Assembly (NCBI GenBank): GCA_041686005.1
Contig: JAWLER010000007.1
Coordinates: 8,794 to 72,793, forward strand
DNA from: Anaerolineales bacterium
GTDB taxonomy: Bacteria; Chloroflexota; Anaerolineae; Anaerolineales; UBA11858
Length of the DNA stretch: 64,000 nucleotides
Direction of reading: 5' to 3'
Shown: one piece after another, positions 3,933 to 32,861 of the stretch
Position numbering within the stretch: position 1 is the stretch's first letter
Layout: every line of letters begins with the position of its first letter
Position numbers and translations under genes: made by a program
Notes under the pieces: generated by a model
What the model saw: only the letters and a program-made list of their open reading frames with translations
Databases searched by the model: none
What the model was told of the DNA's origin: nothing

Positions 3933-4115
3933 ATTTGTTTTCCTTAACTTGACTGCGTCATCCTATTTTATATGGTCCCGGCAACCTTAGCGGATATCGT
4001 TTCATTTGAAAAGGAGGAAATCTGGGATTGATCCCCTCTTCCATGTCTCTCCACCTAGTATTGGACCATATAGGACAATCTATTTCACTTGGGAATAAAT
4101 GTATCCATCGGATGC

Positions 4116-5642: not shown

Positions 5643-5666
5643 TTTTTCATCTCTATACCAGTTATG

Positions 5667-7253: not shown

Positions 7254-7342
7254 CACTTCCTCCTCAAATATATGTCATTAGTATGGGAAAATATACCCAA
7301 AGGGGTTGAAAGTTTTCAATTTTATTTTATATTAATAATAAC

Positions 7343-7360
7343 AGACAGACCAGTCTGTCT
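7343..7360. promoter_or_regulatory. Palindromic operator (probable TetR site) between the divergent ligase and tetR
   Basis: Perfect inverted repeat AGACAGAC-CA-GTCTGTCT just downstream of an AT-rich promoter-like tract. Confidence 0.7.
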
Positions 7361-7380
7361 CAATAGTGGAGGGTGAAATC

Positions 7381-7989
7381 ATGTGTGAGTTAAAAGATAA
7401 TATCATCCACGAGGCGCAAAAATTATTTTCCTTGAATGGGTATTTGAACACCGGTGTGAATGAGATCATCGAGGCCTCTGGAACTTCCAAAGGCGGCTTT
7501 TATAACCATTTTGCGAGCAAAGAGGAATTGTTCTTGGAAGTCCTTACCCAGGCGCAGAAGATATGGCGGGGAAGAGTCTTTCATGGACTTGATGAGATCG
7601 AGAGCCCAACGGAAAAAATCATTCAGATGCTCACAAATTATCGAGATCGCTATATCAAGGACACAGAGAATTTCCCTGGGGGGTGTATTTTCTTGACCTT
7701 TTCTGTGGAGTTGGATGATACCCGACCACATTTAGCAAAAGAGGTGTACAAAGGCTTTGCAGGTTTCAAAGGTTTGTTGAAGGAGCTGTTGGAGGAAGCC
7801 AAAAAGCAAGGCGAAGTATCTAATGATCTGGAACCGGAAGAAGTCTCTGAAATGATATTTGCGGGTATGTTGGGAGCTGCTGTCCAATTTGGGATCGACA
7901 AATCCATTCCTATCCTAAATCGGTCATTTCATTCTTTGATCAAATATATTCAATCATTCAGAGAGAAGCAGTTGTTACGTCAGAAATAG
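7381..7989 (+). CDS. TetR/AcrR family transcriptional regulator
   Basis: HTH ..TGVNEIIEASGTSKGGFYNHFASKEEL and a GGC motif in the C-terminal domain. Confidence 0.93.
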   Translation: MCELKDNIIHEAQKLFSLNGYLNTGVNEIIEASGTSKGGFYNHFASKEELFLEVLTQAQKIWRGRVFHGLDEIESPTEKIIQMLTNYRDRYIKDTENFPGGCIFLTFSVELDDTRPHLAKEVYKGFAGFKGLLKELLEEAKKQGEVSNDLEPEEVSEMIFAGMLGAAVQFGIDKSIPILNRSFHSLIKYIQSFREKQLLRQK

Positions 7990-8151
7990 GAAAAGCCGAA
8001 CCATTCCCTCCAGTGATGTTAAGGGAATCACGGTGTATGGTCATTGGATATTAGATAGGAGGAGGTGATATCTTCAGTTGAAACATAAAACCAAGAACAG
8101 TAAGTTCAATCTAATCTGGCTGTACCAGAATGACAATAAAAGGAGGATGTC

Positions 8152-9858: not shown

Positions 9859-9870
9859 TGTCGTTGAATA

Positions 9871-9909
9871 GGGTCTGATCGGTCAAGGATGCCTTGGCCG
9901 ATCAGATCT
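9871..9909 (+). promoter_or_regulatory. Intercistronic stem-loop after the SBP gene (probable mRNA-stabilising hairpin)
   Basis: GTCTGATCGGTCAAGG-ATG-CCTTGGCCGATCAGAT inverted repeat with no U-tract. Confidence 0.55.
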
Positions 9910-9924
9910 GTCCGGGAGATTCAC

Positions 9925-12054: not shown

Positions 12055-13019
12055 TGACGATGTTGGAAGTCCAAAACCTCTCTGTTTCCTACTTAACCGA
12101 GGATCAAGAAGAACTGAACGCAGTTGAGAATGTCAGCTTCCGCCTTGAAGCAGGGCGTTCCTTGGGCATTGTAGGGGAAAGCGGTTGTGGGAAAACGACC
12201 ACGATCTTAGCCCTCATGCGCTTGCTTCCTGAAGCGGGACGAATAAAGGCTGGCCGGATTCATTTTCATGACAAAGAACTATTACAGATCAGTGAAGCGG
12301 ACATGCGATGTGTGCGCTGGTGTGAAATTTCCATGGTCTTTCAGGGTGCCATGAATTCTCTAAATCCTGTGCGTACCATAGAAAGCCAGATCGTGGAAGC
12401 TTTGCTAAAACATAATCAAGCAGATACGAAGCAACAGGCTCGCCAGCGAACAGCGGATCTTTTGGAAATGGTGGGGATTGCTTCAGAACGGGGGAAGCAA
12501 TATCCACATCAATACAGCGGTGGCATGCGTCAACGGGCTTTTATCGCCATGGCCCTGGCTTGCAATCCGCAGATTTTGATCGCCGATGAACCGACGACAG
12601 CCCTGGACGTCATGATCCAAGCCCAGATTATTCAGCTTCTAAAAAAACTGCAGGAAGAGTTTGATCTCACCTTGATTCTGGTCACCCACGATCTGGGTGT
12701 GGTCGCCGAATTGTGTGATGATGTCCTGGTCATGTATGGTGGGAAGGTGGCTGAGTACGCCAGCAGCGATACGATCTATAACGCTGCAAAACACCCTTAT
12801 ACAAGAAGGTTATTAAGAGCCTTTCCGGATGTCGATCATCTGGATGCGGATCTGGTTTCCATACCCGGTGTTCCGCCGCGCTTGGATGACTTTCCCCTGG
12901 GTTGTCGTTTCAGCCCCCGCTGCCATGTCTGTAAGGATAGATGCAAGCGAGACACACCCCCTTTGGTGGAAATTGAAGATCATCATTATGTAGCCTGCCA
13001 TATGTACAGTCGGAAATGA
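12054..13019 (+). CDS. Peptide/nickel-type ABC transporter ATP-binding protein (DppD-like)
   Basis: Walker A GESGCGKT, SGGMRQR, ADEPTTALD, HPYT and a C-terminal Cys motif. Confidence 0.93.
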   Translation: MTMLEVQNLSVSYLTEDQEELNAVENVSFRLEAGRSLGIVGESGCGKTTTILALMRLLPEAGRIKAGRIHFHDKELLQISEADMRCVRWCEISMVFQGAMNSLNPVRTIESQIVEALLKHNQADTKQQARQRTADLLEMVGIASERGKQYPHQYSGGMRQRAFIAMALACNPQILIADEPTTALDVMIQAQIIQLLKKLQEEFDLTLILVTHDLGVVAELCDDVLVMYGGKVAEYASSDTIYNAAKHPYTRRLLRAFPDVDHLDADLVSIPGVPPRLDDFPLGCRFSPRCHVCKDRCKRDTPPLVEIEDHHYVACHMYSRK

Positions 13020-13032
13020 AAGGGACTCAATT

Positions 13033-14085
13033 ATGGTTGAACCGTCACTGCTAAGGGTCGAAAACCTCACCAAATATTTTCCCGTCTCTCGTTCCTTTTT
13101 CAGAAAGTTATTTGGACAAGGGGAGAGGGTCGTCCATGCTGTGGATGGGGTCAGTTTTTCCTTGAAAACAGGGGAGATTTTAGCACTGGTCGGGGAGTCA
13201 GGTTCCGGAAAGACGACGGTGGGCATGAATGTTTTGGGTTTGCAAATTCCAACCAGAGGTAAAGTGATCTTCGACGGGATCGATGTGGCAGACTGGGGGC
13301 AGGGCAGGGTTGATCCATCGCAGTACATGGGGGAAGAGGAGCTGGCGAAACGAAGCGCTCGCGAACAAGTATTATTGCTTCGAAAACGAGCGCAGATGAT
13401 CTTCCAGGATCCCTATGAATCCCTCAATCCGAGACAGAAGGTTTTTGAGATTGTCGCTGAACCTTTGGATGTCCACGGTTTATCAATTTCAGAGGAGGAT
13501 CGGAAAGAAAAGGTTCGCGATGCCTTGGAGACCAGCGGTCTGGCGCCTGCGGATCATTATTGGGGCCGATATCCAGAAGGGCTTTCGGGGGGCCAGCGTC
13601 AGCGGGTGGTCATCGCCGGCGCTTTAGTGCTTGAACCTGATCTATTGGTCGCTGATGAACCGGTGTCCATGTTGGATGTATCTATCCGGGCGGAATTGTT
13701 AAATTTGTTGCTGGCAATCCGTGATCAAAGGAATATCTCCATCATTTACACCACCCACGACCTGGCGACAGCGGGGTATTTTACGGATCGGATGGCGGTG
13801 ATGTATTTGGGCCGGATCGTTGAGATCGGACCTACGCGGGAAGTGTTGTCGGATCCTCGGCATCCATATACAAAAGCGCTTGTCTCTGTACTGCCTGTAC
13901 CCAACCCTCGTAGGCGTCGGGAGAAAGTCATTTTAAGGGGGGAGGTTCCAAATCCCATTGATCTTCCAGTCGGTTGCCGGTTCCATCCTCGGTGTCCGGA
14001 GGCGATGGACGTATGCAGAGAGATGGACCCTGATTTTGTGCAAATTTCTAAAGAGCATAAAGTCGCTTGTCTTCTTGCTCAATAA
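13033..14085 (+). CDS. Peptide/nickel-type ABC transporter ATP-binding protein (DppF-like)
   Basis: GESGSGKT, LSGGQRQR, ADEPVSMLD, GCRFHPRCP. Confidence 0.93.
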   Translation: MVEPSLLRVENLTKYFPVSRSFFRKLFGQGERVVHAVDGVSFSLKTGEILALVGESGSGKTTVGMNVLGLQIPTRGKVIFDGIDVADWGQGRVDPSQYMGEEELAKRSAREQVLLLRKRAQMIFQDPYESLNPRQKVFEIVAEPLDVHGLSISEEDRKEKVRDALETSGLAPADHYWGRYPEGLSGGQRQRVVIAGALVLEPDLLVADEPVSMLDVSIRAELLNLLLAIRDQRNISIIYTTHDLATAGYFTDRMAVMYLGRIVEIGPTREVLSDPRHPYTKALVSVLPVPNPRRRREKVILRGEVPNPIDLPVGCRFHPRCPEAMDVCREMDPDFVQISKEHKVACLLAQ

Positions 14086-14160
14086 GATGGAGGGAGGTGG
14101 CGGAGTTTTTTAACAAGGTACGATGGATCACCTTATGTGATGGGATAAAAGGAGTGAGTG

Positions 14161-15621
14161 ATGACACTTAAAACACGGGAAGAATACCTGGCTGATTTAA
14201 AAAAGTTGAAACCCAACATGTATAAATTTGGGGAGCAAATCAAGGATGTCACCCAGCATGCAGCCACAAAGCGCACCGTCGAAAGCCATGCTCGTAATTT
14301 CGACGCATCCCATGATCCGGATCTGGCTGAGATGTACACGACAACATCCAAATTCACAGGGGAGAAAATTCACCGTTGGAATTCGATGACCCAGAGTTCA
14401 GACGACCTCATCGCCAATATGAAGATGAAGCGCCAGAATTACCGTCGTACAGGGACATGCACCGGTGGGGTTTGTGTGGGATGGAATGCCCAGAACGTGA
14501 TGTGGGCTGTCACCCAGGACATGGATGAGGAATACGGCACCGATTATCAGCAGCGATTAAAGGATTGGATTCTGCATGCTCAGGAAAACGGGTTGGTCGT
14601 CGCCGGGGCCCTTACTGATGCCAAAGGGAGCCGGAGTTTGAAACCTTCCCAGCAGGAAGACCCGGACTTGACCCTGCGGATCAAGGAGGTTCAGGAGGAT
14701 GGGATCGTCATCCAAGGCGCAAAGCTGATGATTTGCGGTGTGGCGGCCTCCCATGAAATTTTCCTGCTCCCGGGTGGCGTATACAAGGAACCGGATCAAG
14801 ATTATGCCGTGGCTTGTGTCGTGCCCCGCGACATTGAAGGGTTGACCATTGTGGAAGCAACCCGTCCCAGTGACCGACGGGACCTCGAAAAGTCCGCAGA
14901 GGGAGAGGTGCCGGATACCGGGATCACCCAGGGCTTGTTGTTATTTGAAGATGTTTTCGTTCCCAATGAGCGTGTCTTCATGTGTAAAGAGTACAAACAC
15001 ACTCTGAAGATCATTCAATATTTCACGGCAAACTATCGGGCCTGTATCGGTGCGTGTGTTGCGGGACAAGGGGATGTGATGATTGGCGCCTCGGTGTTAA
15101 TGGCGCGGGCCAATGGTCTGCCGATGAAAACCTTCATGAATGACTTTATCGAGATGTCCATGAACAATCAGATTACCTTTGGATTGGGAGTGGGGGCCTG
15201 TACCTTGGGTTTCCAACATCCATCTGGATCCTTTGTCGCTGAACCGCTCACAGCAAACACCAATAAGGTGATGGTGGCAACGCTGCCTTATGAAACCAAG
15301 CGGATCACTCAGGAAATCGGTGGGGGCATGGTGGAGACGGGTTGTATGCCTTCCTACCAGGATTTCACCAGTCCGGAGTATGGCGATTTACTGCATAAGT
15401 ACTACAAGGCCGGTTCAGGAAGCGCTGAGACCCGCTATAAAATCGCGCGCTTGGCTGAATGGTTGAGCATTGGCGGTGGCGTGCCGGGCTGCATGCACGG
15501 AGGCGGTTCTCCAGGCGGGGCGAGATTGATGGTGCGTTTCACCACCCCCTTCGAAGAGTACGCGGAATACGCAAAATCTTTGATGAATATCGAAGAAGAA
15601 GTGCCTGAACCTCAGAAATAG
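14161..15621 (+). CDS. 4-hydroxybutyryl-CoA dehydratase / 4-hydroxyphenylacetate 3-hydroxylase family flavoprotein (divergent)
   Basis: GALTDAKGSRSLKPSQQEDPD, FEDVFVPNERVFMC, GDVMIGA and MHGGGSP follow AbfD architecture. Catalytic positions are substituted. Confidence 0.85.
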   Translation: MTLKTREEYLADLKKLKPNMYKFGEQIKDVTQHAATKRTVESHARNFDASHDPDLAEMYTTTSKFTGEKIHRWNSMTQSSDDLIANMKMKRQNYRRTGTCTGGVCVGWNAQNVMWAVTQDMDEEYGTDYQQRLKDWILHAQENGLVVAGALTDAKGSRSLKPSQQEDPDLTLRIKEVQEDGIVIQGAKLMICGVAASHEIFLLPGGVYKEPDQDYAVACVVPRDIEGLTIVEATRPSDRRDLEKSAEGEVPDTGITQGLLLFEDVFVPNERVFMCKEYKHTLKIIQYFTANYRACIGACVAGQGDVMIGASVLMARANGLPMKTFMNDFIEMSMNNQITFGLGVGACTLGFQHPSGSFVAEPLTANTNKVMVATLPYETKRITQEIGGGMVETGCMPSYQDFTSPEYGDLLHKYYKAGSGSAETRYKIARLAEWLSIGGGVPGCMHGGGSPGGARLMVRFTTPFEEYAEYAKSLMNIEEEVPEPQK

Positions 15622-15639
15622 GAACAGTGAGGATGATGT

Positions 15640-17181
15640 ATGTTTTATGGTGATTGGTTACATAGACGTGCGTTATTGTCGCCCCATAAAATAGCCCTCA
15701 TTGACGCTGAAAAGGGTGATTTGGAGATCTCGTATCGGGAGTGGAACGCCCGGGTTAACCGCATGGCGCACTTCTTTCAGGAAGAGCTTGGGATCAAGAA
15801 AGGGGACCGTGTTTCCATTTATTCCGTTAACCGGATGGAATATGTAGATGCTCTGTTTGCCTGTAATAAATTGGGCGCAGTCCTTCAAGTCATCAATTGG
15901 CGTCTGACAATCGAAGAGTTGGAGATGTTAATCGGTGAAGTGGAACCGAGGGCATTAATCTACAGCGAGGAGTGGATTGAGGAGGTGAATAGTCTCCGAC
16001 CCCACTTAAAGAGTGTGGAGGGATATGTAGGTTTAGATACCAAGGCAAAAGAGAGCGATCTCACCTGGGATGGGGAAGAAGCAGAGCGCTGGCCGGAGTC
16101 CCAGCCTGATCCGGTGGGGTTGGATTGGGAAGATCCCTGGGTGATCTGTTATACGGGCGGGACCACAGGGTTGCCGAAAGGTGCTGTGCTTCATTATCGA
16201 TCCATGACCTGGAATTCCATCAATACGGTCATGAGCTGGGGCTTGCAGTCCGATGAAGTGGTCCCTCATTACATGCCTATGTATCACACAGGGGGGATCA
16301 ATGTCATGCTCCTTCCCATCGTCCACATTGGGGCCACAACCGTTTTCTGCGAGCGGTTTGACGTCGATCAACTTTTTGATCAGATCGACCGTTTAGGGAT
16401 CACCTTTTTCTTTGGTGTGCCGGCCATGCTCTTGGAAATGATTCAGCATCCCAGATGGGAGTCTTTGGATTTGTCCAATGTGCGCCTGGTGATGGCGGGT
16501 GGGGGCAATTGTCCCCAAGTTATCTATGAAGCTTTTTGGGAGAAAGGGGTGGAATTCAAAGAGGGGTATGGATTGACGGAAGCTGGGCCCAATACCTTTT
16601 GGCTCCCCTCGGAGTTTCTAAGGTCGAAAGTTGGGTCGGTCGGACGCCCCTTGTTCCACGTCGACGTGAAAATTGTCGACCATGAAGGTAATACCTTGGG
16701 TGTTGAGGAGGTGGGAGATTTAATGGTGCGGGGACCGCATGTCTTTGGCGGATATTGGGGTCGCCCAGAAGCCACGGAAGCGGTTATGGACGATGGGTGG
16801 CTCCACACCGGAGATCTTGCCAAGGTGGACCAGGACGGTTGTTATTACATTGTGGGCCGCCTAAAAGACATGATCAAATCTGGAGGAGAGAATATTTATC
16901 CCGAAGAGATTGAGGATATCCTCCACAGCCACCCTGCGATCTTAGAAGCAGCGGTCATCCCTGTCCCTGATCCGAAATGGGGGGAGGTGGGATGTGCTGT
17001 GGTGTCCCGTAAACCCGGTAAAGCATTATCCGAAGACGATTTGATCCAGTGGATGAGAGGGGAGATGGCCCACTACAAAGTCCCCAAATCGGTGATTTTC
17101 GTCGAGATACTGCCGAAAACCGGGGCTAATAAAGTGGATAAAAAAATCTTGGTGGAAAAGTACGGCAAAAAGGAAACGTAG
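15640..17181 (+). CDS. AMP-forming acyl-CoA synthetase
   Basis: YTGGTTGLPKG, GYGLTEAG, GWLHTGD, KSGGENIYP, KTGANK. Confidence 0.92.
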   Translation: MFYGDWLHRRALLSPHKIALIDAEKGDLEISYREWNARVNRMAHFFQEELGIKKGDRVSIYSVNRMEYVDALFACNKLGAVLQVINWRLTIEELEMLIGEVEPRALIYSEEWIEEVNSLRPHLKSVEGYVGLDTKAKESDLTWDGEEAERWPESQPDPVGLDWEDPWVICYTGGTTGLPKGAVLHYRSMTWNSINTVMSWGLQSDEVVPHYMPMYHTGGINVMLLPIVHIGATTVFCERFDVDQLFDQIDRLGITFFFGVPAMLLEMIQHPRWESLDLSNVRLVMAGGGNCPQVIYEAFWEKGVEFKEGYGLTEAGPNTFWLPSEFLRSKVGSVGRPLFHVDVKIVDHEGNTLGVEEVGDLMVRGPHVFGGYWGRPEATEAVMDDGWLHTGDLAKVDQDGCYYIVGRLKDMIKSGGENIYPEEIEDILHSHPAILEAAVIPVPDPKWGEVGCAVVSRKPGKALSEDDLIQWMRGEMAHYKVPKSVIFVEILPKTGANKVDKKILVEKYGKKET

Positions 17182-17955
17182 ATGGAGAGGAAGACCATGA
17201 GACTCAAGGGAAAAGTGGCCTTAATTACAGGCGGCGCTGCCGGGATTGGGAAAGCGACTGCGAAAGTTTTTATAGAACAGGGAGCCACTGTTTGCATCTG
17301 TGATGTGGACGAAAAGACTGGGGAAGAGGTGGCAGAGGAATTGGGTTGCAATTTTGCCAAGGTCGATGTCTCTGACCGACGGGCTGTGCAGGCGTGGGTG
17401 GATGGGATCGGGGAAGAGTTTGGCAGGATAGATATTTTGATCAATAATGCGGGGATTACCAAAGATGGCCTTTTCGTAAAAGTCAAGGATGGAGAACTGG
17501 TCAAACAGATGCCGGAGGAGGACTTCGATGCGGTGATCTCAGTCAACCTAAAAGGGGTTTTCAACTGCACCCAGGCGGTCGCCCCCTATATGATCCCTCA
17601 AAGCTCAGGCTCCATTGTCAATGCTTCCTCTGCGGTGGGATTGGATGGAAACTTCGGCCAAACCAACTATGTGGCGTCCAAGGCCGGGGTGGTGGGGATG
17701 ACCAAAGTCTGGGCGCGTGAACTGGGTCGCTACAATATCCGGGTTAACGCTGTGGCCCCGGGTTCGATTCAGACGGAGATGTTGGCATCCGTACCAGAGA
17801 AAGTCTTAACTGAATTTAAGAAGCACCAGCCCTTGGGCCGCTTTGGAGAACCTGAAGAAGTAGCCTATGCCTACCTTTTCTTGGCATCTGAAGAAGCCAG
17901 CTTTGTATCAGGAGCGGTCCTGCGGGTCGACGGGGCTTTGGTAGTGGGAACCTAG
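17182..17955 (+). CDS. SDR oxidoreductase, FabG / acetoacetyl-CoA reductase-like
   Basis: TGGAAGIG, NNAGI, GNFGQTNYVASK (YxxxK), NAVAPG. Alternative start at 17197. Confidence 0.9.
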   Translation: MERKTMRLKGKVALITGGAAGIGKATAKVFIEQGATVCICDVDEKTGEEVAEELGCNFAKVDVSDRRAVQAWVDGIGEEFGRIDILINNAGITKDGLFVKVKDGELVKQMPEEDFDAVISVNLKGVFNCTQAVAPYMIPQSSGSIVNASSAVGLDGNFGQTNYVASKAGVVGMTKVWARELGRYNIRVNAVAPGSIQTEMLASVPEKVLTEFKKHQPLGRFGEPEEVAYAYLFLASEEASFVSGAVLRVDGALVVGT

Positions 17956-17970
17956 CAGAGAGTATTGGGT

Positions 17971-18996: not shown

Positions 18997-19018
18997 TGGA
19001 ATGGATGGTTGGAAAATA

Positions 19019-20080: not shown

Positions 20081-20119
20081 AGACGCTTATTGATCAGTTT
20101 GGATAAGAAAGGATGGGTG

Positions 20120-21427: not shown

Positions 21428-21908
21428 AAGGGAAGGGGTCAGGCAATTTAAGGGAAGACCGATTCTTCCCGGGGATGTAGTGGGTGAGGCTTTGGTTACC
21501 CATTTGGGTTTCAACGCTTACGCCAGTTTTTATGATTGTTTATCTGGGAATGTGGATACCGCGGTGTGCGCCGATGCCGGGAATGACGAGTTGTATGGAA
21601 GGCGCCTGGATAGCAAGATTATCTGCCTTCCGCAGACGATCGGCTCCACATCAGCAGGCGCGGTGTGGCAGCGGGTGGCGGATTTAGGTCTGGCCCCCAA
21701 AGCCATGTTGTTTTCGAAACCCATAGATTCCCTGGCCGCAGGGGGGTTAATCGTGGCGGATGTGTGGACGAACGTCCGCATCGTCACAGTCGATCAGCTC
21801 GGGGAAGATTTCTTAATTGCGGTGGAGAGCGGTGGACGAGTACATGTAGGGGAAGATGGAACTGTGGTTGTAAGGAGAAGCGGTGAGGGCGAGCATGAAA
21901 TCAAGTGA
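21420..21908 (+). CDS. Aconitase X swivel (small) subunit (DUF126)
   Basis: G.VVGEALVT, KIICLPQTIGSTSAG, APKAMLF. Overlaps the stop of the large subunit. Confidence 0.85.
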   Translation: MAEREGVRQFKGRPILPGDVVGEALVTHLGFNAYASFYDCLSGNVDTAVCADAGNDELYGRRLDSKIICLPQTIGSTSAGAVWQRVADLGLAPKAMLFSKPIDSLAAGGLIVADVWTNVRIVTVDQLGEDFLIAVESGGRVHVGEDGTVVVRRSGEGEHEIK

Positions 21909-22614
21909 ATCCGATAAGCTCCGGGAGATGATCATAAACAAGGCCAAAGAATTTGGTGCTACCCTAGCTGGCATTGGAAGGGTAGTCGATCTCAAGACGA
22001 CACCGACCTATGAAAAGTATGATCGGGTTCCCTATCTCGACTTTTTTGAGGCATTGCCGGAATGGCCGTCAGACGCGGAATCGATCTTGGTATTCGCCTT
22101 GCTCCATCCGAGAACCGAACCGGTCTTGGATTGGTGGGATTCCAAGCCGGGAGGGACGCCTGGAAATCGCGTCTTGATCCAAATCCAGAATAAAATGGAG
22201 GATTGGCTAAGGGAAGAGATGGACATCAAAGCCTATTCTCTGGCATATCATCTGGAAAAAGGTGGGGTATTTTTGAAAGACGCTGCGGTGTGTGCCAGTT
22301 TGGGCGTGATTGGGAAGAACAATTTGCTCATAACGCCTGAATATGGGCCAGACGTTCGCCTCAGAGCTTCTTTATTAGATGTAGCATTGGATCCAAGCGA
22401 ACCTCTGGATTTTGATCCCTGTGCAGGCTGTGATAAGCCCTGCTTTCAGGCCTGCCCCCAAGACGCTTTCAGAAGTGGTTCTTTTGAACGAAAATATTGC
22501 CGTATCCAAATGCGGAAGGATCAAGAAAACGCACGGTCATTACCCCATGACCCCAAAACAGTCTATGTCCGTTGGTGCCGTGCCTGTGAGCTTTCCTGTC
22601 CGATAGGGCGTTGA
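21883..22614 (+). CDS. QueG / reductive-dehalogenase-like double [4Fe-4S] protein, copy 1
   Basis: FGATLAGI, KDAAVCASLGVIGKNNLLITPEYGPDVRL, CAGCDKPCFQACP...C...CRACELSCP. Confidence 0.8.
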   Translation: MRASMKSSESDKLREMIINKAKEFGATLAGIGRVVDLKTTPTYEKYDRVPYLDFFEALPEWPSDAESILVFALLHPRTEPVLDWWDSKPGGTPGNRVLIQIQNKMEDWLREEMDIKAYSLAYHLEKGGVFLKDAAVCASLGVIGKNNLLITPEYGPDVRLRASLLDVALDPSEPLDFDPCAGCDKPCFQACPQDAFRSGSFERKYCRIQMRKDQENARSLPHDPKTVYVRWCRACELSCPIGR

Positions 22615-22749
22615 GGGATGATATGAATTCTGGAAGGGTGAGAAGTATATACTTCCCAATTTATCAAAGCAAGGTGATCATGATACATATTTTCTGGTGC
22701 CTCGTTTTCTGTGTTTTTACCAGCCTTGCTTTTTTGAGGAGGTAAACCT

Positions 22750-24807
22750 ATGTCGCTTGAGCGTCTATTAAAGCCGCGTTCCATTGCTGTTTTCGGCGGC
22801 GCCCAAGCCCAAGAGGCGATTCGCCAGTGTGATCGCATGGGATACAAAGGGGAAATATGGCCGGTCCATCCTAAAAAGGAGGAGATGTTAGGTCGCCGGG
22901 TTTACCGCTCTGTCGAGGATCTGCCGGAAAGCCCCGATGCCGCCTATGTCGCTGTGAATCGCTATATCACCATCGATATCGTCAGGGACCTCGCCGCCCG
23001 GGAAGCGGGTGGGGCGATTTGTTATGCCACCGGTTTCACGGAAGCAGGGGAGGAAGGATCTGAACTTGGAGAGCAGCTTTTGGAGGTCTCGGGAGACATG
23101 CCCCTCATCGGCCCGAATTGTTACGGCCTCCTCAACTATCTCACCGGGGCCATGCTCTGGCCAGACCAGCAAGGTGGCCAAAGAGTAGACCAAGGCGTGG
23201 CCATTATCACCATGTCATCGAATGTGGGCTTCAACCTCACCATGCAGCGGCGGGGCCTGCCCATTGCCTATATGGTTTCCCTTGGAAACAGGATTAAGTT
23301 TGATCTCCAGGATGCCGTGCGTGCCTTTGCCCGGGAAGATCAGGTCACAGCGTTAGGGTTGTTTCTGGAGACGATTCCGGATCCAAAAGCGTTCGAGCAG
23401 GCGGTTACTTTCGCTAAGGATATGGGAAAACCCACGGTAGCGATCAAGACCGGACGTTCTGAAGTCGCCAAGAAAATGGTCATGTCCCACACGGCGTCCC
23501 TGGCCGGTTCTGACGTTCTGGTGAGTGCTTTATTCGAGCGACTCGGTGTGGCCCGCGTGGATTCTCTGGAGGCGCTCATAGAGGCCCTGAAGGTATTGCA
23601 TGTTCTCGGTCCATTGGACGGCGGTCGAGTTGCAGCCATGAGCACTTCAGGCGGCGATCTCACGCTTCTCGCGGATGCTTTAGGACCGAAACTGGACATG
23701 CCTCAGCTATCCGAGGAGGTGAAGCGAAAATTTCGCCAGACGCTTCATGAACGGATGGTGGCAGCCAATCCGTTCGATTTTCAGATGTTTTACTGGAATG
23801 ACGAGGAACGCATGGCCGAACAATTTACAGCTTTTTTGGAAGATGATTTTGACGTGGCATTGTGTTTACTCGACTACCCGCGGGAAGATCGCTGTGACCA
23901 ATCGACTTGGAGAGGGGCTGAGAGGGGGTTTGTCCGGGCGGCGCAGCAGACCGGCACCAAAGGTGCGGTGATGGCGACCTTCTCGGATACGATTTCAGAA
24001 CCGGTGGCAAAGCGGTTAATGGAAGATGGGATTGCTAATCTGGCTGGCATTAAGGATGGTATCGCGGGCATCCAGGCGGCAGTGGATGTAGGTGTAGCTT
24101 GGAAACAACCACCCAGCCCACCGCTGTTAGAGATCCCTGACCAGCTGCAGGACCAACCTGTCAAAGTGTTAGATGAAGCTGAAGCCAAAGATCATCTAGC
24201 CCGGATTGGCGTTCCCATCCCCTCCGGCCGTGTCGTTACCGATACTGAAGAGGCGATTATGGCGGCTGAAGCATTGGGTTACCCGGTCGTTTTAAAAGCG
24301 TTAGGCCTCACCCATAAGACCGAAGTTAATGGCGTCAGGCTCAACCTTAGTAACCCAGAGGGATTAGCGACAGCAGTGGCAGAGGTGTCAGAACTCTCTG
24401 GATCCATGTTAATCGAACAAATGGTCGAGGATGTTGTCGTAGAGCTTCTGGTCGGCGTAGCCTGGGATGTCCAATTTGGACCCTTCCTTATGGTCGGAGG
24501 TGGCGGAATCCTCGTCGAGATGATGAAAGATACCGTTTCACTCCTCTTGCCAGCCAGCAAAGAAAGGGTACTGGACGCGTTGAATACGCTAAAATGCGCT
24601 CCGCTTTTCAGCGGGTTCAGGGGAGGGCCACCAGCCGATCTGAACGCTGCTGTTGATGTCATCTTGGCGGTTGCGGGTATGGTAGAGGATGATCCAACAT
24701 CCATCATTGAGCTTGACATCAATCCTTTGTTGGTTTTGGCTGAGGGGCAGGGTGTGGTGGCGGCCGATGCCCTGATCAGTATCCCTACGGATGATTTAAA
24801 CACATAG
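22750..24807 (+). CDS. ADP-forming acyl-CoA synthetase (acetate-CoA ligase family, fused alpha/beta)
   Basis: PRSIAVFG, GPNCYG, SHTASLAG (phospho-His), GYPVVLK, HKTE..GV.L, ELDINPL. Confidence 0.9.
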   Translation: MSLERLLKPRSIAVFGGAQAQEAIRQCDRMGYKGEIWPVHPKKEEMLGRRVYRSVEDLPESPDAAYVAVNRYITIDIVRDLAAREAGGAICYATGFTEAGEEGSELGEQLLEVSGDMPLIGPNCYGLLNYLTGAMLWPDQQGGQRVDQGVAIITMSSNVGFNLTMQRRGLPIAYMVSLGNRIKFDLQDAVRAFAREDQVTALGLFLETIPDPKAFEQAVTFAKDMGKPTVAIKTGRSEVAKKMVMSHTASLAGSDVLVSALFERLGVARVDSLEALIEALKVLHVLGPLDGGRVAAMSTSGGDLTLLADALGPKLDMPQLSEEVKRKFRQTLHERMVAANPFDFQMFYWNDEERMAEQFTAFLEDDFDVALCLLDYPREDRCDQSTWRGAERGFVRAAQQTGTKGAVMATFSDTISEPVAKRLMEDGIANLAGIKDGIAGIQAAVDVGVAWKQPPSPPLLEIPDQLQDQPVKVLDEAEAKDHLARIGVPIPSGRVVTDTEEAIMAAEALGYPVVLKALGLTHKTEVNGVRLNLSNPEGLATAVAEVSELSGSMLIEQMVEDVVVELLVGVAWDVQFGPFLMVGGGGILVEMMKDTVSLLLPASKERVLDALNTLKCAPLFSGFRGGPPADLNAAVDVILAVAGMVEDDPTSIIELDINPLLVLAEGQGVVAADALISIPTDDLNT

Positions 24808-24916
24808 TGGGCCACAGAGTGTGGAGGGTAAGTGCTTTGAATCTCATATGGTTAGCTGCTAGTAGGGCATGATCTAAAAGGAACGCCCTGTAAGTGGGTG
24901 AAAAGGAGGTTCATTA

Positions 24917-25678
24917 ATGACATCTGAGAATCATATCCTTCGAGAAACCATCCTGGAGAAGGCAAAAGAATTGGGTGCCTCAGTAGTGGGGATCGCCAGG
25001 ATGGAAGACCTTAAAGACTCCCCCTCTTTTTGCATTTATGAAGAGAAACCGTTCTATGAAGAATATGATCCCTCTTCCTCTGATTTTTATGAATTTAAAG
25101 GTTTTGATTGGCATGAGCCTCACAAGTCAGTCCTTGTGTGGGGTTTGTCTCATCCACCTTCCAAACCCGTCCTCGATTGGTGGAGCATGAAGGTCCCGGG
25201 CTTTACCCCTGGCAACCGCATATTGCGAAGCCAGTCGCATGAGCTCCGGGTTTGGCTGGAGGAGAAGCTTGGCATCGATGCCCTTTCACTGCCTTATCAG
25301 GTTGAGTTTGGCGGGACTTTCCTCAAAGACGCCGCCCACCTGGCTGGCTTGGGGGTGATCGGCAAAAATAACCTCTTGATCACACCGGAGTATGGACCTC
25401 GCGTGCGTCTCCGGGCGATCTCCCTGGAGGCTGTGTTCGAGCCAACAGGCCCCATCGATTTTGATCCCTGCAAAGGGTGCGATATGCCCTGTCACCGGGC
25501 TTGTCCGAGGGACGCGTTCCGAAGTGGATCATTTGAAAGACCCTATTGCAAAGAGGAGAATGACGCCCGATATGATAACGAAGAATTAATCGATGGTTCG
25601 GTGATGGGGATCGACGAGCCCAGCATGGTCATGAAACCTTGCCGGTTTTGCGAACTCGCCTGCCCCATCGCTAAGTGA
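24917..25678 (+). CDS. QueG / reductive-dehalogenase-like double [4Fe-4S] protein, copy 2
   Basis: Paralog of 21883-22614: KDAAHLAGLGVIGKNNLLITPEYGPRVRL, CKGCDMPCHRACP...CRFCELACP. Confidence 0.8.
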   Translation: MTSENHILRETILEKAKELGASVVGIARMEDLKDSPSFCIYEEKPFYEEYDPSSSDFYEFKGFDWHEPHKSVLVWGLSHPPSKPVLDWWSMKVPGFTPGNRILRSQSHELRVWLEEKLGIDALSLPYQVEFGGTFLKDAAHLAGLGVIGKNNLLITPEYGPRVRLRAISLEAVFEPTGPIDFDPCKGCDMPCHRACPRDAFRSGSFERPYCKEENDARYDNEELIDGSVMGIDEPSMVMKPCRFCELACPIAK

Positions 25679-28217: not shown

Positions 28218-28292
28218 TCAATATAGACAATGGATTATCAATTTTTGTTCCCATGAGAAACATAAACCCCAATGCTCAGAGGAGGTACCGAG

Positions 28293-29429
28293 ATGATTGA
28301 CTTTACATTTACTGAAGAACAAGAACTGTTCCAAAAAGCCGCCAGAGAGTTCGCAGAGACCGAACTCGCCCCTCATGTTCCGGCCATGGAAGAGAATGAT
28401 GAATACTGGGAGCCGGTGATCGATGCGCTGTGCGAGGCAGAGATGATGGCCATCACCATCCCAGAAGAATACGGAGGCTTGGGATTGGGTTATGTGGAGC
28501 GTTTGATCGCTTTAGAAGAAATCGCCCGCATTTCTTCCGCGACGGCGATGATGATGCAGGTGGGTGGTTTGGGGATCGCACCTATCCTTGTGTTTGGGAA
28601 TGAAGAACAAAAACAGAAATACTTGCCCGGTTTGGCTTCTGGGGAGCATTTTGCCACCGTCGCGGTCACCGAACCATCTGGTGGTTCCAATCCCAAAGAT
28701 TGTTCTACCACCTATGTCAAGGAAGATGGCAAATACATTTTGAATGGTCGAAAATGCTTCATCACCAATGCTCACATCGCGGATGTTCAGGTCGTATTTG
28801 CAGCCGATGCGGATGACCCATCAACCCATTCCACATTTATTGTGGAAAGCGGATGGGAGGGTTTTAAAGCTACTCATATTGAACACAAAGTGGGATGGCG
28901 CGGTTGCAATACCGGGGAGATCGAGTTGAAGGATTGTGAAGTACCCGCTGAAAATCTCTTGGGACCGGAAGGAAAGGGCATGCGCGTGGCGATGACGGTG
29001 ATCAGCGATGTAGGCCGGGGTGGTATGGTGGGCTGCGCCTTAGGCATCCAACAGGCCTGTCTGGACGCATCCATCGAGTTTGCCAAAGAACGTGAACTAT
29101 ACGGTAAGCCGATCAGCTATCTGCAGGCCATCCAGTTCAAGCTGGCCGAGATGAAAATCGACCTGGAAGCTGGGAGACTGCTGGGGTACCGGGCAGCTTC
29201 CATTCAGGATGCTGGGGGCAATGCCGGGAATGAGTTTGCGGTGGCGAAATACTATACCACGGAAGCAGCGCAAAAAGCGGCCAAAATGGCTGTGGATATC
29301 CATGGTGGATACGGCGTCATGCAGGAAGTGGATATTACCCGCCACCTCCGGGACTCATTTGTATTGGGTCCGTCAGCTGGCACTTCGGATATCATGAAGG
29401 TCATCATCGCCCGGTGGGTGCTGTCCTAA
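28293..29429 (+). CDS. Acyl-CoA dehydrogenase
   Basis: IPEEYGGLG, AVTEPSGGS, LNGRKCFITN, QAIQFKLAEM, IHGGYG. Confidence 0.93.
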   Translation: MIDFTFTEEQELFQKAAREFAETELAPHVPAMEENDEYWEPVIDALCEAEMMAITIPEEYGGLGLGYVERLIALEEIARISSATAMMMQVGGLGIAPILVFGNEEQKQKYLPGLASGEHFATVAVTEPSGGSNPKDCSTTYVKEDGKYILNGRKCFITNAHIADVQVVFAADADDPSTHSTFIVESGWEGFKATHIEHKVGWRGCNTGEIELKDCEVPAENLLGPEGKGMRVAMTVISDVGRGGMVGCALGIQQACLDASIEFAKERELYGKPISYLQAIQFKLAEMKIDLEAGRLLGYRAASIQDAGGNAGNEFAVAKYYTTEAAQKAAKMAVDIHGGYGVMQEVDITRHLRDSFVLGPSAGTSDIMKVIIARWVLS

Positions 29430-29513: not shown

Positions 29514-30311
29514 ATGGTTTCTATTGTAGTTTGTGTCAAGGCCGTCCCTGACCCTGAAAAAGCGGACGAAATCAGGATCGATCCGGTCACCAAAGCCCTG
29601 CCCAGGCAGGATGTCCCCTTGGTGATTAATCCCCTGGATCGAAATGCTCTGGAGGCAGCGTTACAGTTTAAAGAAGGGGGGAAAGTGCATATCACTGTGG
29701 TCAGCATGGGACCCCCTCCAGCTGGAAAAGTGGTCAAGGAATGCTTGGCTTTGGGAGCAGATGAGGGGATCCTTTTATCTGATCCCGCCTTTGCAGGGGC
29801 AGATGCCTATGCGACTGCGTTTACGCTTGCCAAGGCCATCCAGAAACTGGATAAGACAGACTGCATCCTCTGTGGGAGGGCGAGCAGCGACGGGGCAACT
29901 GAGTGGGTGGGGCCTGAGTTAGCCACCTTTTTGGGTATACCGGTAGTGACCATGGTCCGCGAATTCGTTGCGACTGGGGATGAGAGATGGAAAGTCAAAG
30001 CTGATCTCGCGGACGGATACCGATTGGTCGAAGTAGAGATGCCGGCTGTATTTACAGTGACCAAGGATCTCAACACACCCCGTACCCTCCGTTATTCAGG
30101 GATCATAAAGGCCAGAAAGAAGGGGATCACCACCTGGGGGTTGGATGAGTTAGACGTGTCCGAGTCCTCCGTGGGATTGAAAGGCTCTCCTACGGTGATG
30201 TCCGATTTGACGTATGTCGAAAGAAAATCCACCTGTCAGTTCATCGAAGGCACATTGGAAGAGAAAGCGGATTTTCTGATCCAGAAGATGATGGAGGTAG
30301 GGGTGTTATGA
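29514..30311 (+). CDS. etfB: Electron transfer flavoprotein beta subunit
   Basis: IVVCVKAVPD, INPLD..ALEAAL, SMGPP, FAGAD..ATA, GLKGSPT. Confidence 0.92.
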   Translation: MVSIVVCVKAVPDPEKADEIRIDPVTKALPRQDVPLVINPLDRNALEAALQFKEGGKVHITVVSMGPPPAGKVVKECLALGADEGILLSDPAFAGADAYATAFTLAKAIQKLDKTDCILCGRASSDGATEWVGPELATFLGIPVVTMVREFVATGDERWKVKADLADGYRLVEVEMPAVFTVTKDLNTPRTLRYSGIIKARKKGITTWGLDELDVSESSVGLKGSPTVMSDLTYVERKSTCQFIEGTLEEKADFLIQKMMEVGVL

Positions 30312-31303
30312 GTCGAGGGTCAACCAACTCCGTCTGGGTCATTGCCGAAGGCATTGGGGGGCGCATCCCCGGGGTCTGTCTTGAGTTAATCGGAAAAGCG
30401 CGAACATTAGGGGACACATTAGGAGGAGAGGTTGGGGTCCTTCTTCTGGGGTATGGGATTCAAGAGCAGGTGGATGAGCTTTTTCATGCAGGTGCGGATG
30501 TGGTTTATCTGGGAGATTCGCCTGTATATGAAAAGTATCAACCCGAGATTTTCACGGAAACAATCGTTCCTTTGTCAAAAGAGGTTCAGCCCCAGATCAT
30601 CTTGCTGGGTTCGACATTCATGGGTAGAGAGCAGGCGCCCCTTATCGCTGCCCGGCTTGGCACGGGGTTAACCGCCCATTGTATCGACCTGATCATCAAT
30701 GAAGAGGGGATTCTGGAGCAAAAGATCCCGGCCTATGGGGGGATGATGACCATCGTCTGCCCGGAAAAACGACCTCAAATGGCGACTGTCACCCAAGGCG
30801 TTTTTCCCATGCCCGATTTGGACATGAGCCGGTCGGGGAAAATCATACCCGTCGAACCGCCGGAAGGGCTTAGGACTCGCGTGGAGACCCTCAAGGTGGT
30901 CAGGAAAAAACCGGAAGGCGTCCCCCTCGAATCCGCGCCGGTGGTGATCGCTGGCGGGGCAGGGGCGGGATGCGCTGAAGGTTGGCAGGAGATTGAAGAT
31001 TTAGCGAAAACGCTGAATGCAGCTGTGGGTTCAACCCGTCCTGCTGTTGACGAGGGGTGGACGGAACTGGAGACCATGATTGGTCAGAGTGGGAAAATGG
31101 TCCATCCTGAATTCTACATCGCGGTCGGGATCTCTGGCGATATGCAGCATATGGTGGGCATCAGTGGGGCGAAAGCCATGGTGGCTGTTAACAACGATCC
31201 CCAAGCCCCGGTTTTCGAACAGGTGGATTACGGTATTGTGGCAGATTGCCGTGAGTTTATCCCCATTTTGTTACGAAAGTTGAGGGAGAAAGGCGATTTG
31301 TAA
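30308..31303 (+). CDS. etfA: Electron transfer flavoprotein alpha subunit
   Basis: GLTAHC, RPQMATV, GSTRPAVDEGW, IGQSGK.V.P..YIAVGISG..QH. Confidence 0.93.
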   Translation: MSRGSTNSVWVIAEGIGGRIPGVCLELIGKARTLGDTLGGEVGVLLLGYGIQEQVDELFHAGADVVYLGDSPVYEKYQPEIFTETIVPLSKEVQPQIILLGSTFMGREQAPLIAARLGTGLTAHCIDLIINEEGILEQKIPAYGGMMTIVCPEKRPQMATVTQGVFPMPDLDMSRSGKIIPVEPPEGLRTRVETLKVVRKKPEGVPLESAPVVIAGGAGAGCAEGWQEIEDLAKTLNAAVGSTRPAVDEGWTELETMIGQSGKMVHPEFYIAVGISGDMQHMVGISGAKAMVAVNNDPQAPVFEQVDYGIVADCREFIPILLRKLREKGDL

Positions 31304-31352: not shown

Positions 31353-32861
31353 ATGATCGATCTTGAAGAGCGCAAAGCCAGCATCCAACCCATCAAGTCC
31401 AAGTTACAAATCAGTATTCTTGATGACCAGGAAATTAAGCAGATCAATGAGAGCACGCGCGCGGTTTTAGAGGAGATCGGCGTGAAGTTCCCCTCCTCAA
31501 AAGCACTCCAGCTTTTTGCGGATGTGGGCGCGGATGTCGATTTTAAAACCCAGATCGTCAAGATCTCCCCTGATTTGCTTGACACATATCTTGAGACTTC
31601 CCCTCGTTCGTACAAGATGGCGGGGCTGCGCCCTGATCTCGATGTCCCTGTGGGAGAAGGAGAAGGGACATATTTTTACTGCAGCGGTGAGGCGCCCAAA
31701 ATCGTTGATTTTAAGACGGGAAAACGCCGGCTCTCCGTAAAAGAGGATATCGCGAACCATGCCCGCATCGCTGATTATCTTCCGATCGTATCCCTGGTGT
31801 GGCCGTCGGTCAGTGCCAGCGATAAAGATGTGACCTCCCCTCTTCACGGCTTGGAAGCCTGTTACAACAATACGGAGAAACACATCGAGACCGAATCGGT
31901 CATGGATGAAGTTTCAGCTCAATATGCAGTAGATATGGCTACTGTCATCGCTGGGAGCAAAGAGAAGTTGCGTGAACGACCGATTCTATCGCAACTCCTC
32001 TGTGCCATCGCCCCCCTGGCGCATGATAAAGGGGGAATAGAGGCTGCGATGGTCTTTGCTGAGCACGGCATACCGGTTGGCCTGATGTCGATGCCTACCT
32101 TAGGCCTTACAGGCCCGCCAACCGCTGCCGGGTCTTTGACATTGGCCATGGCTGAGGTGCTAAGTGGCATCATGCTCACCCAAATCATTTACCCCGGAGT
32201 GGGAAATTACATCTCCATAAACCCGGGGAGTATGGACCCTCGCACGGGGGAATATTTCATGGCTTCAGGTGTGGTACAGGTCACCAATGTCGCCGGTATC
32301 CAGCTATCACACGCCAACGGCATCCCCGTGCTTGCCTGCCATTCCTTTGGCGGTAGCCAGTATGAATTAGGCAATTGGCAGGCCGGTTATGAAAATTTAT
32401 ATTCTCACTTTTTGGCGGTGATGAGTGGGGCAGATATGTCCTTTGGTCCCAGTGGGATGTATGAAGCGGTCAGCCTGCTTGACCACCCCCGGATTTTATT
32501 TGATCGCGAAATCCTGCGTGTGATCGATGAGATCACGCAGGGGATCGAGGTCAACGAGGAGACGCTTGCTTTTGAGATGATCCGCGAAGTTGGGCATCAA
32601 GGTATTTATGTCTCACGAAAAGAAACGGTGGATTTTTACCGGTCGATGTGGCCTCAGGACTCGATTCTTTATGAAGACGGAAAAGCAGAAGGGCGGAAAT
32701 GGCGCGATCCGGTGGATGTGGCGCGAGAAAGGATCGGCTGGATCCTTGAAAACCATAAACCGGAACCCCTACCTCAGGATGTCAAGGCAGAGGTCAGGAA
32801 AATTGTGGCTGCGGCCGATCGGGATGAAGAGTTGGAAAAAGCAGTCAGAGGAGGGAGATGA
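31353..32861 (+). CDS. Trimethylamine methyltransferase (MttB) superfamily protein, non-pyrrolysine
   Basis: VLEEIGV, G.TGPPT.AG.L....AE.LSG...Q...PG, MDPRTG, GIEVNEETLA...IREVG, H.PEPLP. No in-frame UAG. Confidence 0.88.
   Translation: MIDLEERKASIQPIKSKLQISILDDQEIKQINESTRAVLEEIGVKFPSSKALQLFADVGADVDFKTQIVKISPDLLDTYLETSPRSYKMAGLRPDLDVPVGEGEGTYFYCSGEAPKIVDFKTGKRRLSVKEDIANHARIADYLPIVSLVWPSVSASDKDVTSPLHGLEACYNNTEKHIETESVMDEVSAQYAVDMATVIAGSKEKLRERPILSQLLCAIAPLAHDKGGIEAAMVFAEHGIPVGLMSMPTLGLTGPPTAAGSLTLAMAEVLSGIMLTQIIYPGVGNYISINPGSMDPRTGEYFMASGVVQVTNVAGIQLSHANGIPVLACHSFGGSQYELGNWQAGYENLYSHFLAVMSGADMSFGPSGMYEAVSLLDHPRILFDREILRVIDEITQGIEVNEETLAFEMIREVGHQGIYVSRKETVDFYRSMWPQDSILYEDGKAEGRKWRDPVDVARERIGWILENHKPEPLPQDVKAEVRKIVAAADRDEELEKAVRGGR

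Follow-up and report, generated by a model that had tools for sequence, protein, structure and literature searches.

An AbfD-like gene within a 21-gene array

The window, by which we mean the whole 64,000-nucleotide stretch of Anaerolineales DNA analysed here, carries an array of 21 same-strand genes (7366-32861, + strand, with gaps of at most 162 nt), the sixth of which encodes a protein related to AbfD (4-hydroxybutyryl-CoA dehydratase/vinylacetyl-CoA delta-isomerase, EC 4.2.1.120), the textbook flavin/Fe-S radical dehydratase. In order, the array holds a TetR-family regulator, an SBP_bac_5-type ABC transporter, the AbfD-like gene, an AMP-forming coenzyme A (CoA) ligase, a short-chain dehydrogenase/reductase (SDR), a KASIII-like gene, an alpha/beta hydrolase, a split aconitase-X (AcnX), a gene resembling QueG and reductive dehalogenases (RDH), an ADP-forming synthetase, a second QueG/RDH-like gene, a beta-lactamase-fold esterase, a thiolase, an acyl-CoA dehydrogenase (ACAD), the two subunits EtfB and EtfA of an electron-transferring flavoprotein (ETF), and MttB. 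The gene of interest is:

14161..15621, + strand: gene for an AbfD-like enzyme of the predicted flavin adenine dinucleotide (FAD)/[4Fe-4S] type, 486 amino acids from ATG

The list of open reading frames (ORFs) gives it as 14158-15621 (+), with 487 amino acids and a GTG start. The ATG at 14161 is preceded by GGAG, 8-9 nt upstream, and a 100%-identical database protein is 486 amino acids long; given this start and this length, we took the coordinates of the first-pass annotation (a model's reading of the sequence alone), 14161-15621, to be those of the gene.

The protein matched the Pfam domains HpaB_N (3.4e-77) and HpaB (2e-37) and no other Pfam domain, and its closest solved structures by HMMER were 1u8v, AbfD from C. 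aminobutyricum (E 7e-90), and 6vjr, the 4-hydroxybutyryl-CoA dehydratase (4HBD) of N. maritimus (E 2.1e-83). The only NCBIfam models to respond were two HpaB equivalogs, both far below their cut-offs (TIGR02309, 117.8 against 480.2 bits; TIGR02310, 91.6 against 885.2 bits). An AlphaFold2 model based on an alignment of 65 sequences, with a predicted local distance difference test (pLDDT) score of 93.7, superposed in Foldseek on 1u8v over its full length (template modelling (TM) score 0.95, root-mean-square deviation (rmsd) 1.4 A, 34% identity) and on 6vjr (TM 0.94, 33% identity), and ACAD structures matched it at TM ~0.5 with E 1e-10. Matches in the ESM Atlas were all in clusters named HpaB or AbfD. 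Homologues bear the JGI name '4-hydroxybutyryl-CoA dehydratase/vinylacetyl-CoA-Delta-isomerase', and NCBI gives several of them the HpaB-type name.

Residues replaced and gained

The cluster of AbfD is described, in the portion of a preprint available to us (bioRxiv 10.1101/2020.02.05.935528), as bound by C99, C103, C299 and H292. The residues it singles out as important in the dehydration are T190, E257, Y296 and E455, the first two forming a diad with a role in protonating the flavin semiquinone; the same source reports dehydration activity to be strongly reduced in the E260Q and T194V variants of N. maritimus 4HBD. We compared the window protein with AbfD through its HMMER alignment to 1u8v, and followed the differences through a clade of 176 members (68 unfused proteins, 101 domains fused to EtfA and 7 others) set against 6 canonical-type AbfD representatives. 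The positions are as follows, with counts out of the 176:

14458..14475, + strand: CTGGVC, holding cluster Cys101 and Cys106 (AbfD C99 and C103; both 176/176) with one residue, G103, inserted (176/176), giving CX4C and not CX3C
14728..14736, + strand: M191-I192-C193 in place of AbfD H188-Q189-T190 (M191 and I192 176/176, Cys193 173/176)
14920..14934, + strand: GITQG, with Gln258 in place of AbfD Glu257 (175/176)
15034..15060, + strand: YRACIGACV, with Tyr293 for His292 (176/176), Cys296 for Ser295, Ile297 for Tyr296 (176/176), Cys300 equivalent to the Cys299 ligand (176/176) and Val301 for Lys300 (176/176)
15334..15345, + strand: ETGC, with a two-residue G395-C396 insertion carrying an invariant Cys396 (176/176)
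15484..15510, + strand: PGCMHGGGS, with Glu455 lost in a 4-residue deletion and Cys445 for Ser456 (174/176)

None of the four dehydration residues is kept (0/4; T190 has become C193, E257 Q258 and Y296 I297, and E455 is deleted), and the histidine cluster ligand H292 is Y293, so that all five non-Cys functional positions of AbfD are altered in the window protein; the three Cys ligands are retained. A460 of AbfD is replaced as well, by G449. The ETGC insertion is absent from 6/6 of the canonical-type representatives and includes a new acidic residue, Glu393, which is present in all 8 clade sequences displayed in the alignment. Cysteines 193, 396 and 445 are invariant gains of the whole clade, and Cys296 is an additional one of the window's own subgroup, present in 67/68 proteins of the unfused main group and nowhere else in the clade set. 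Residues 293, 296, 297 and 300 share a single helix of the model (H279-318), which would put Cys296 towards the cluster side, between the old ligand positions H292 and C299, and makes it a candidate fourth cluster ligand in this subgroup.

The first-pass annotation had set out these replacements by eye, and each was reproduced by the alignment to 1u8v, which did not restore equivalents of His292, Glu257 or Glu455. Its account of Glu257 needs one correction: GGQEA has indeed become GITQG, but the residue is not lost outright, since Gln258 replaces it. It had also judged that the AbfD fold and three Cys ligands appear kept and that extra Cys appear near the active site, and here the model (pLDDT 93.7; TM 0.95 and rmsd 1.4 on 1u8v), the alignment and the 176-member comparison agree with it, the extra Cys falling at active-site positions. 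The ETGC insertion with its invariant Cys396 had been overlooked.

Conservation, phylogeny and matches in RNA libraries

The best 120 database relatives are 76-100% identical to the window protein, with the motif positions invariant or nearly so across the 121 proteins compared. In species-representative genomes a scan turned up 80 loci, 60-86% identical, whose record titles name Bacteroidia, Syntrophobacteria, Syntrophia, Desulfobacteria, Clostridia, Negativicutes, Anaerolineae, Elusimicrobia and others; the clade spans at least 8 phyla. Cultured carriers are Desulfopila aestuarii DSM 18488, Megasphaera cerevisiae DSM 20462 and Neomoorella sulfitireducens, and we take the named carrier organisms to be mostly strict anaerobes. 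DNA matches include hypersaline-lake and sediment metagenomes.

Within a sample of 401 genomes of the phylum, only the window's own genome gave a match above 38% identity, and since this sample held no close kin, the relatives used for comparison were taken from other phyla. Loci were compared as a set of 73, consisting of the window and the 72 of the 80 loci in which the ORF caller recovered the gene (it was missed in L020, L031, L045, L053, L056, L060, L092 and L097), with two paralogues of other signatures (L021_14 and L061_18) excluded. The exact 14-position signature is present in 65/73 genes; 3 more are cut at the C-terminus and 1 holds an X. At L021 and L061 a clade member lies within ~10 kb of a second AbfD-family paralogue that has another signature and keeps the His ligand.

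In an IQ-TREE phylogeny (54 rows, LG+G4) the 13 clade rows formed a single branch (support 100/100, stem 0.50), and the canonical AbfD group formed a separate branch (100/98) with the window protein outside it. A quick 94-row tree gave the same separation, and joined the clade with canonical AbfD in a larger group at 97 in the Shimodaira-Hasegawa-like approximate likelihood ratio test (SH-aLRT). A library of representatives at 50% identity contained three full-length relatives above 40% identity, after which identity fell to 37% or less. Among the AbfD-superfamily representatives of that kind (50%-identity clusters P0127-P0271) the canonical residue set is itself in the minority, and many clusters keep the His and Cys ligands and miss E257, Y296 or E455 in various combinations; there may be further uncharacterised subfamilies of the AbfD superfamily.

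Given this kinship, it was not unreasonable to consider that the clade carries out canonical chemistry with other residues, either dehydrating 4-hydroxybutyryl-CoA or only isomerising vinylacetyl-CoA to crotonyl-CoA, with acid and base supplied by Glu393 and Cys thiols and the fourth ligand by a Cys or Tyr293. The shared fold, the three kept ligands, the 34% identity to 1u8v and the larger group with the canonical clade at SH-aLRT 97 are all in keeping with this, as is the new acidic Glu393 in the 8 clade sequences displayed, and ACAD and ETF using crotonyl-CoA are the downstream partners one would expect. On the other hand, five of five non-Cys functional positions are changed, and the E-to-Q and T-to-V variants of N. 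maritimus 4HBD cut dehydration strongly, according to what is available of the preprint cited above (bioRxiv 10.1101/2020.02.05.935528). The separate clade also has full support and a long stem (0.50), and the His-keeping paralogues at L021 and L061 suggest non-redundant roles. Neither a 4-hydroxybutyrate dehydrogenase nor an AbfT-type transferase was found in the array, and the sole AcetylCoA_hyd_C gene lies on another contig. We therefore consider canonical chemistry decidedly improbable.

Against four relatives, pN was 0.087-0.141 per site and pS 0.78-0.86, giving pN/pS of ~0.11-0.18 at saturated synonymous sites (L025, a fifth relative, was left out because its excised sequence contained a stop); the clade is under purifying selection. 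Contigs of 4 RNA libraries from 2 studies contain 100%-identical pieces of 151-260 nt, which on the AbfD-like gene cover 14520-14670, 14911-15164, 15078-15253 and 15306-15565, and others fall on the ligase, SDR, KASIII-like, ACAD, ETF and MttB genes. Such contigs may include DNA and give neither strand nor level, and the matches are consistent with transcription of the AbfD-like gene.

These data bear directly on whether we are looking at an AbfD paralogue that is in decay or has lost all catalysis, such as a pseudo-enzyme or structural subunit, for which the loss of known catalytic residues is the sole evidence. The replacement residues are invariant over 176 proteins from many phyla, identity across phyla is 60-86%, pN/pS is ~0.11-0.18 at saturated synonymous sites, the ORF is intact with a ribosome-binding site in place, and identical pieces occur in RNA libraries. 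We rejected decay on the clade-wide conservation of the signature and the low pN/pS, and give a dead paralogue of any kind next to no likelihood. That orthologs on a 100/100 branch share the substitutions is the opposite of the decay by which, according to the first-pass annotation, its reading would have failed, and argues, as it had proposed, for a reaction different from that of AbfD.

Linkage to ACAD and ETF, and fusion to EtfA in a sister group

Further along the array lie three genes that recur beside clade members elsewhere:

28272..29429, + strand: short-chain acyl-CoA dehydrogenase, ortholog of the ACAD that relatives carry immediately 5' of the AbfD-like gene
29514..30311, + strand: EtfB, small ETF subunit
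30308..31303, + strand: EtfA, large ETF subunit, 331 amino acids

The neighbours of the AbfD-like gene in the 73 loci are as follows, with ACAD and ETF counted within 10 kb:

ACAD: 51/73 (34 within three genes)
EtfA: 33/73
EtfB: 32/73
ACAD, EtfA and EtfB together: 32/73
any CoA-activating enzyme (CoA ligase or CoA-transferase): 33/73
Pct-type CoA-transferase: 22/73
MFS transporter: 19/73
sigma-54 activator: 19/73
FixC-like and FixX-like: 13/73 and 10/73
CitMHS_2 transporter: 10/73
QueG/RDH-like family: 9/73
BCCT transporter: 4/73
MttB: 2/73
neither ACAD nor ETF: 22/73 (several loci incomplete)

When only loci with at least 4 ORFs on each side are counted, ACAD or ETF is present in 36/46. The usual order is ACAD-EtfB-EtfA-AbfD-like. 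In the closest relatives (L021-L029, L057, L065 and L090) these three genes stand immediately 5' of the AbfD-like gene, and their products match those of the window at 67-80% (ACAD), 57-66% (EtfB) and 52-65% (EtfA) identity. Given this orthology to an adjacent set, the module in the window is the same one, with 12.6 kb separating its two parts. No substrate-specific gene is common to the 73 loci; transporters (MFS, CitMHS_2, BCCT, ABC) and CoA-activating enzymes vary.

The top structural matches of the window ETF are CarDE 6FAH, 7KOE, 4KPU, 5OL2 and LctBC 7QH2 (E 1e-40 to 1e-70), which we take to be electron-bifurcating ETFs, and those to 1EFV or 1O94 are far weaker (1e-25 to 1e-40). The ACAD is of the short-chain type, with 5LNX, 4L1F and 5OL2_C as top matches in the PDB, and its best NCBIfam model is the acryloyl-CoA reductase AcrC (338.8 bits, under the 640-bit cut-off).

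In a sister group the tie to ETF is covalent. The 825-residue protein P0123, one of the three full-length relatives above 40% identity, has ETF and ETF_alpha domains followed by HpaB_N/HpaB, and among the 120 matches listed in a search with it, 101 protein clusters of at least 810 amino acids are such EtfA-AbfD-like fusions, nearly all listed with four Pfam domains. They lie on contigs as long as ~1 Mb, and their carriers include Acidobacteria, Elusimicrobia, Bacteroidales and others. Residues 3-326 of P0123 align to residues 5-326 of the window EtfA (of 331), and its AbfD-like part, 53% identical to the window protein (53-54% across the fusions), begins at residue 342, opposite window residue 5; only ~6 residues are thus added between the EtfA C-terminus and the AbfD-like part. 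Our literature search returned no description of EtfA fused to a partner enzyme, subscription journals lying largely outside its reach. We know of no solved complex in which EtfA is fused to its partner, nor of any ETF partner from the AbfD family.

The ACAD and ETF genes do not by themselves require that the AbfD-like protein meet the ETF. It could be a redox-neutral radical gamma-lyase that removes trimethylamine, methylamine or ammonia from a 4-substituted butyryl-CoA, like BbuA, and hands crotonyl-CoA to ACAD-ETF or beta-oxidation, the ETF being the partner of the next enzyme only. The layout of CoA-activating enzyme, lyase and ACAD/ETF fits, and direct C4 elimination is called chemically analogous to the 4HBD reaction in the BbuA paper, in such text as was accessible (PMC8364193). 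With a leaving group that departs unaided by acid or Lewis acid, His292, Glu257, Glu455 and Tyr296 would be dispensable, and the loss of Lys300 would suit a cationic substrate. BCCT is in the cluster at L027-L030 (4/73), among them Desulfopila aestuarii and Neomoorella sulfitireducens, MttB is in the window and L027, the window's genome has seven MttB genes, and hypersaline-lake and sediment metagenomes are among the carriers of the DNA.

Against this, 69/73 loci have no BCCT and 71/73 no MttB, the common transporters being MFS (19) and CitMHS_2 (10); BCCT was not found in the window's genome, which is 87% complete; and the MttB that closes the 21-gene array is weakly linked, the genome having seven copies in 2.6 Mb. 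A class III CoA-transferase of the bbu-cluster type was not seen in the window. The gain of three to four invariant Cys and the conserved, near-linkerless EtfA fusion would be left unexplained. The first-pass annotation had named as one option the elimination of a 4-(methyl)amino group, in keeping with the neighbouring MttB; that idea finds weak support, with MttB in 2/73 and BCCT in 4/73 loci and the window MttB 15.7 kb downstream, and we consider a gamma-lyase of this kind unlikely.

Proposed function and significance

By sequence, the AbfD-like gene belongs to a clade of its own within the AbfD/HpaB superfamily, and a strongly conserved one. Its reaction probably differs from 4-hydroxybutyryl-CoA dehydration, and the database name is probably wrong. 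The linkage to ACAD and EtfBA and the EtfA fusion, which are the dominant signal, point to ETF-coupled chemistry. Our preferred reading, to which we give about even odds, is that the protein is no 4-hydroxybutyryl-CoA dehydratase but an acyl-CoA enzyme of the FAD/[4Fe-4S]/thiol type, coupled to ETF, that would carry out a redox or radical conversion of a short-chain acyl-CoA.

By homology to AbfD the protein should carry FAD and one [4Fe-4S] cluster. It would dock on the ETF in the manner of an ACAD-type partner and exchange electrons with it. The cluster would have no open, His-ligated Lewis-acid iron, and could relay electrons or work in concert with the new thiols. C193 and Q258 stand where AbfD has the T190/E257 diad. 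The substrate would be a short-chain acyl-CoA, presumably supplied by the adjacent AMP-forming ligase and elsewhere by CoA-transferases, and the conversion a net or ETF-primed redox or radical one, for example a reductive or redox-assisted gamma-elimination or a double-bond shift, that would feed, or be fed by, the partner ACAD.

Several observations weigh against ETF coupling. ACAD and ETF are both missing within 10 kb in the 22/73 loci listed above, and in 10/46 of those with at least 4 ORFs on each side; rumen Bacteroidales loci pair the AbfD-like gene with ACAD with no ETF nearby; and in the window itself ACAD-EtfBA is not adjacent, lying 12.6 kb downstream. Fusion of neighbouring genes is no proof of electron transfer, and adjacency of a Bcd-like ACAD and ETF is equally expected for a plain lyase making crotonyl-CoA. 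Cys296, moreover, is Ala in 101/101 members of the fusion clade and 7/7 of the other members, and given this, Cys445, Cys396 or Tyr293 has to be considered as the clade-wide fourth ligand.

A bolder form of the ETF-coupled proposal, which we think quite unlikely, is a new type of ETF partner in which FAD, [4Fe-4S] and the new Cys would be charged by a bifurcating-like ETF for radical or reductive C-X (C-N, C-S or C-O) cleavage at C4 of a short-chain acyl-CoA. If true, this would be the first Fe-S flavoenzyme wired directly to ETF via the AbfD fold, and in saline-sediment lineages with BCCT, MttB and QueG/RDH-like genes it would offer a second route, unrelated to BbuA, for osmolytes of the gamma-butyrobetaine or 4-aminobutyrate type.

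The clade is a widespread, uncharacterised sister of a textbook radical enzyme, named in databases as that enzyme. A full-text literature search found no description of it, subscription journals, where one is possible, being largely outside that search, and a proteome paper on Desulfococcus multivorans does not mention the AbfD-like enzyme. Judging by its figure legend, one metagenome study counts K14534 among carbon-fixation marker genes, and the figure legends of another have 4.2.1.120 as a step of scored cycles. Members without the catalytic set occur in Anaerolineae, Desulfobacterota, Syntrophia, Bacteroidales and Bacillota, and if K14534 captures them, carbon-fixation inferences would be inflated. 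With its scaffold kept, its His ligand and acid/base residues swapped for Tyr, Cys and hydrophobics, and its EtfA fusion, the clade is a test case for retuning, and the range of ETF-driven reactions may widen. The three isolates among its carriers make the question open to bench work.

The surrounding genes

Apart from the genes already listed, the array and its flanks include:

7366..7989, + strand: TetR-family regulator, head of the array
15640..17181, + strand: AMP-forming acyl-CoA ligase, 18 nt 3' of the AbfD-like gene
21883..22614, + strand: QueG/reductive-dehalogenase-like protein, copy 1 of family fam11, with 8 invariant Cys
22750..24807, + strand: ADP-forming acyl-CoA synthetase
24917..25678, + strand: QueG/reductive-dehalogenase-like protein, fam11 copy 2
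31353..32861, + strand: MttB-family methyltransferase without an in-frame stop, last gene of the array

The two fam11 copies are ~250 amino acids long and 50% identical to each other, have no Pfam match, and share the pattern CX2CX3CX3CP ... C ... CX2CX3CP. Their similarity to QueG and reductive dehalogenases is weak but specific (PDB 5d08, E 1.5e-6; 4uqu, 2.6e-6), and a model of pLDDT 69.8 matched QueG in Foldseek at TMq 0.57. The family lies near the AbfD-like gene in 9/73 loci, including L024-L030 and L090, and is thus recurrent in the closest relatives; it may be a small cobalamin/Fe-S reductase of the same pathway.

Between the AMP-forming ligase and the first fam11 gene (17182-21908, +) are the SDR, the KASIII-like gene (NCBIfam PRK06840, above cut-off), the alpha/beta hydrolase and a split aconitase-X dehydratase (large subunit 20090-21427, small subunit 21375-21908). 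The block, parts of which recur in the Anaerolineae relatives L020, L026 and L090, may form a second arm of this catabolic island. The ABC permease (9889-12054, +) is one 721-residue protein with two BPD_transp_1 domains and OppC_N, as it is in L020, and appears to be a fused pair of permease subunits. Divergent from the TetR gene, 566-7256 (-) encodes a sulfotransferase, a phosphodiesterase-family protein, a sulfatase and a second AMP-forming CoA ligase; the sulfatase and ligase are also found in L020 (86% identity), which as far as its sequence extends is collinear with the window apart from a few missing genes.

The seven MttB-family genes of the genome (2.65 Mb; contigs C8, C21, C36 and C71, L101-L107) suggest that methylated amines are used heavily. 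Of the seven, the window's copy has the lowest Pfam score (213 bits), and reaches 327 bits against a cut-off of 525 for the pyrrolysine-type trimethylamine methyltransferase.

G+C content is 0.48-0.52 across the array (window 1-30000; genome percentiles 2-25, genome mean 0.534) and 0.556-0.576 over 35000-60000 (percentiles 82-97). Together with the 74-76% identity of the window protein to Desulfobacterales copies, the low G+C of the array is a weak hint of its lateral acquisition. Over 7000-26900, promoter-like sites showed no excess (16 against 18.0 in shuffles) and terminator-like sites were somewhat commoner than in shuffles (29 against 18.8, standard deviation 4.9), with none listed in the two short gaps that flank the AbfD-like gene.

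Comparison with known systems

AbfD (1u8v) and N. maritimus 4HBD (6vjr) share with the AbfD-like protein the fold over its full length and three of the four cluster ligands, and ten columns are invariant in the 65-sequence alignment that includes canonical-type representatives. The clade differs from AbfD in having Tyr for the His292 ligand, C, Q, I, a deletion and V for T190, E257, Y296, E455 and K300, and CX4C for CX3C; it has in addition the ETGC insertion and Cys445, a branch of its own (100/100) and the tie to ETF, covalent in the sister group.

The HpaB two-component flavin monooxygenases (2yyg, 6eb0) have the same HpaB_N/HpaB Pfam domains. The AbfD-like protein is only 19-20% identical to them at TM ~0.8, has the cluster Cys, and misses the HpaB equivalog cut-offs.

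A possible functional analogue is BbuA, gamma-butyrobetainyl-CoA trimethylamine-lyase from Emergencia timonensis, a flavin enzyme from the wider structural superfamily of ACADs that performs a C4 elimination from a CoA ester (PMC8364193, text accessible in part). The same text describes it as an ordinary ACAD-family protein with less than 10% identity to 4HBD, in a cluster with class III CoA-transferases, ferredoxin, BCCT and a thioesterase, and mentions no Fe-S cluster in BbuA. The AbfD-like protein thus belongs to another sequence family, with no class III CoA-transferase seen in the window; of the BCCT and Fe-S protein of the BbuA cluster, BCCT recurs in 4/73 clade loci.

The systems most similar to the ETF and ACAD of the module are Bcd-EtfAB (5OL2, 4KPU/4L1F) and CarCDE (6FAH), in which likewise a dehydrogenase-type protein stands beside EtfBA and a CoA-activating enzyme, and the AbfD fold is itself ACAD-like. 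Here, however, the module has an ordinary ACAD plus the AbfD-like Fe-S protein, and the latter, unlike the ETF-dependent ACAD partners, has no Acyl-CoA_dh Pfam domains, only HpaB_N/HpaB.

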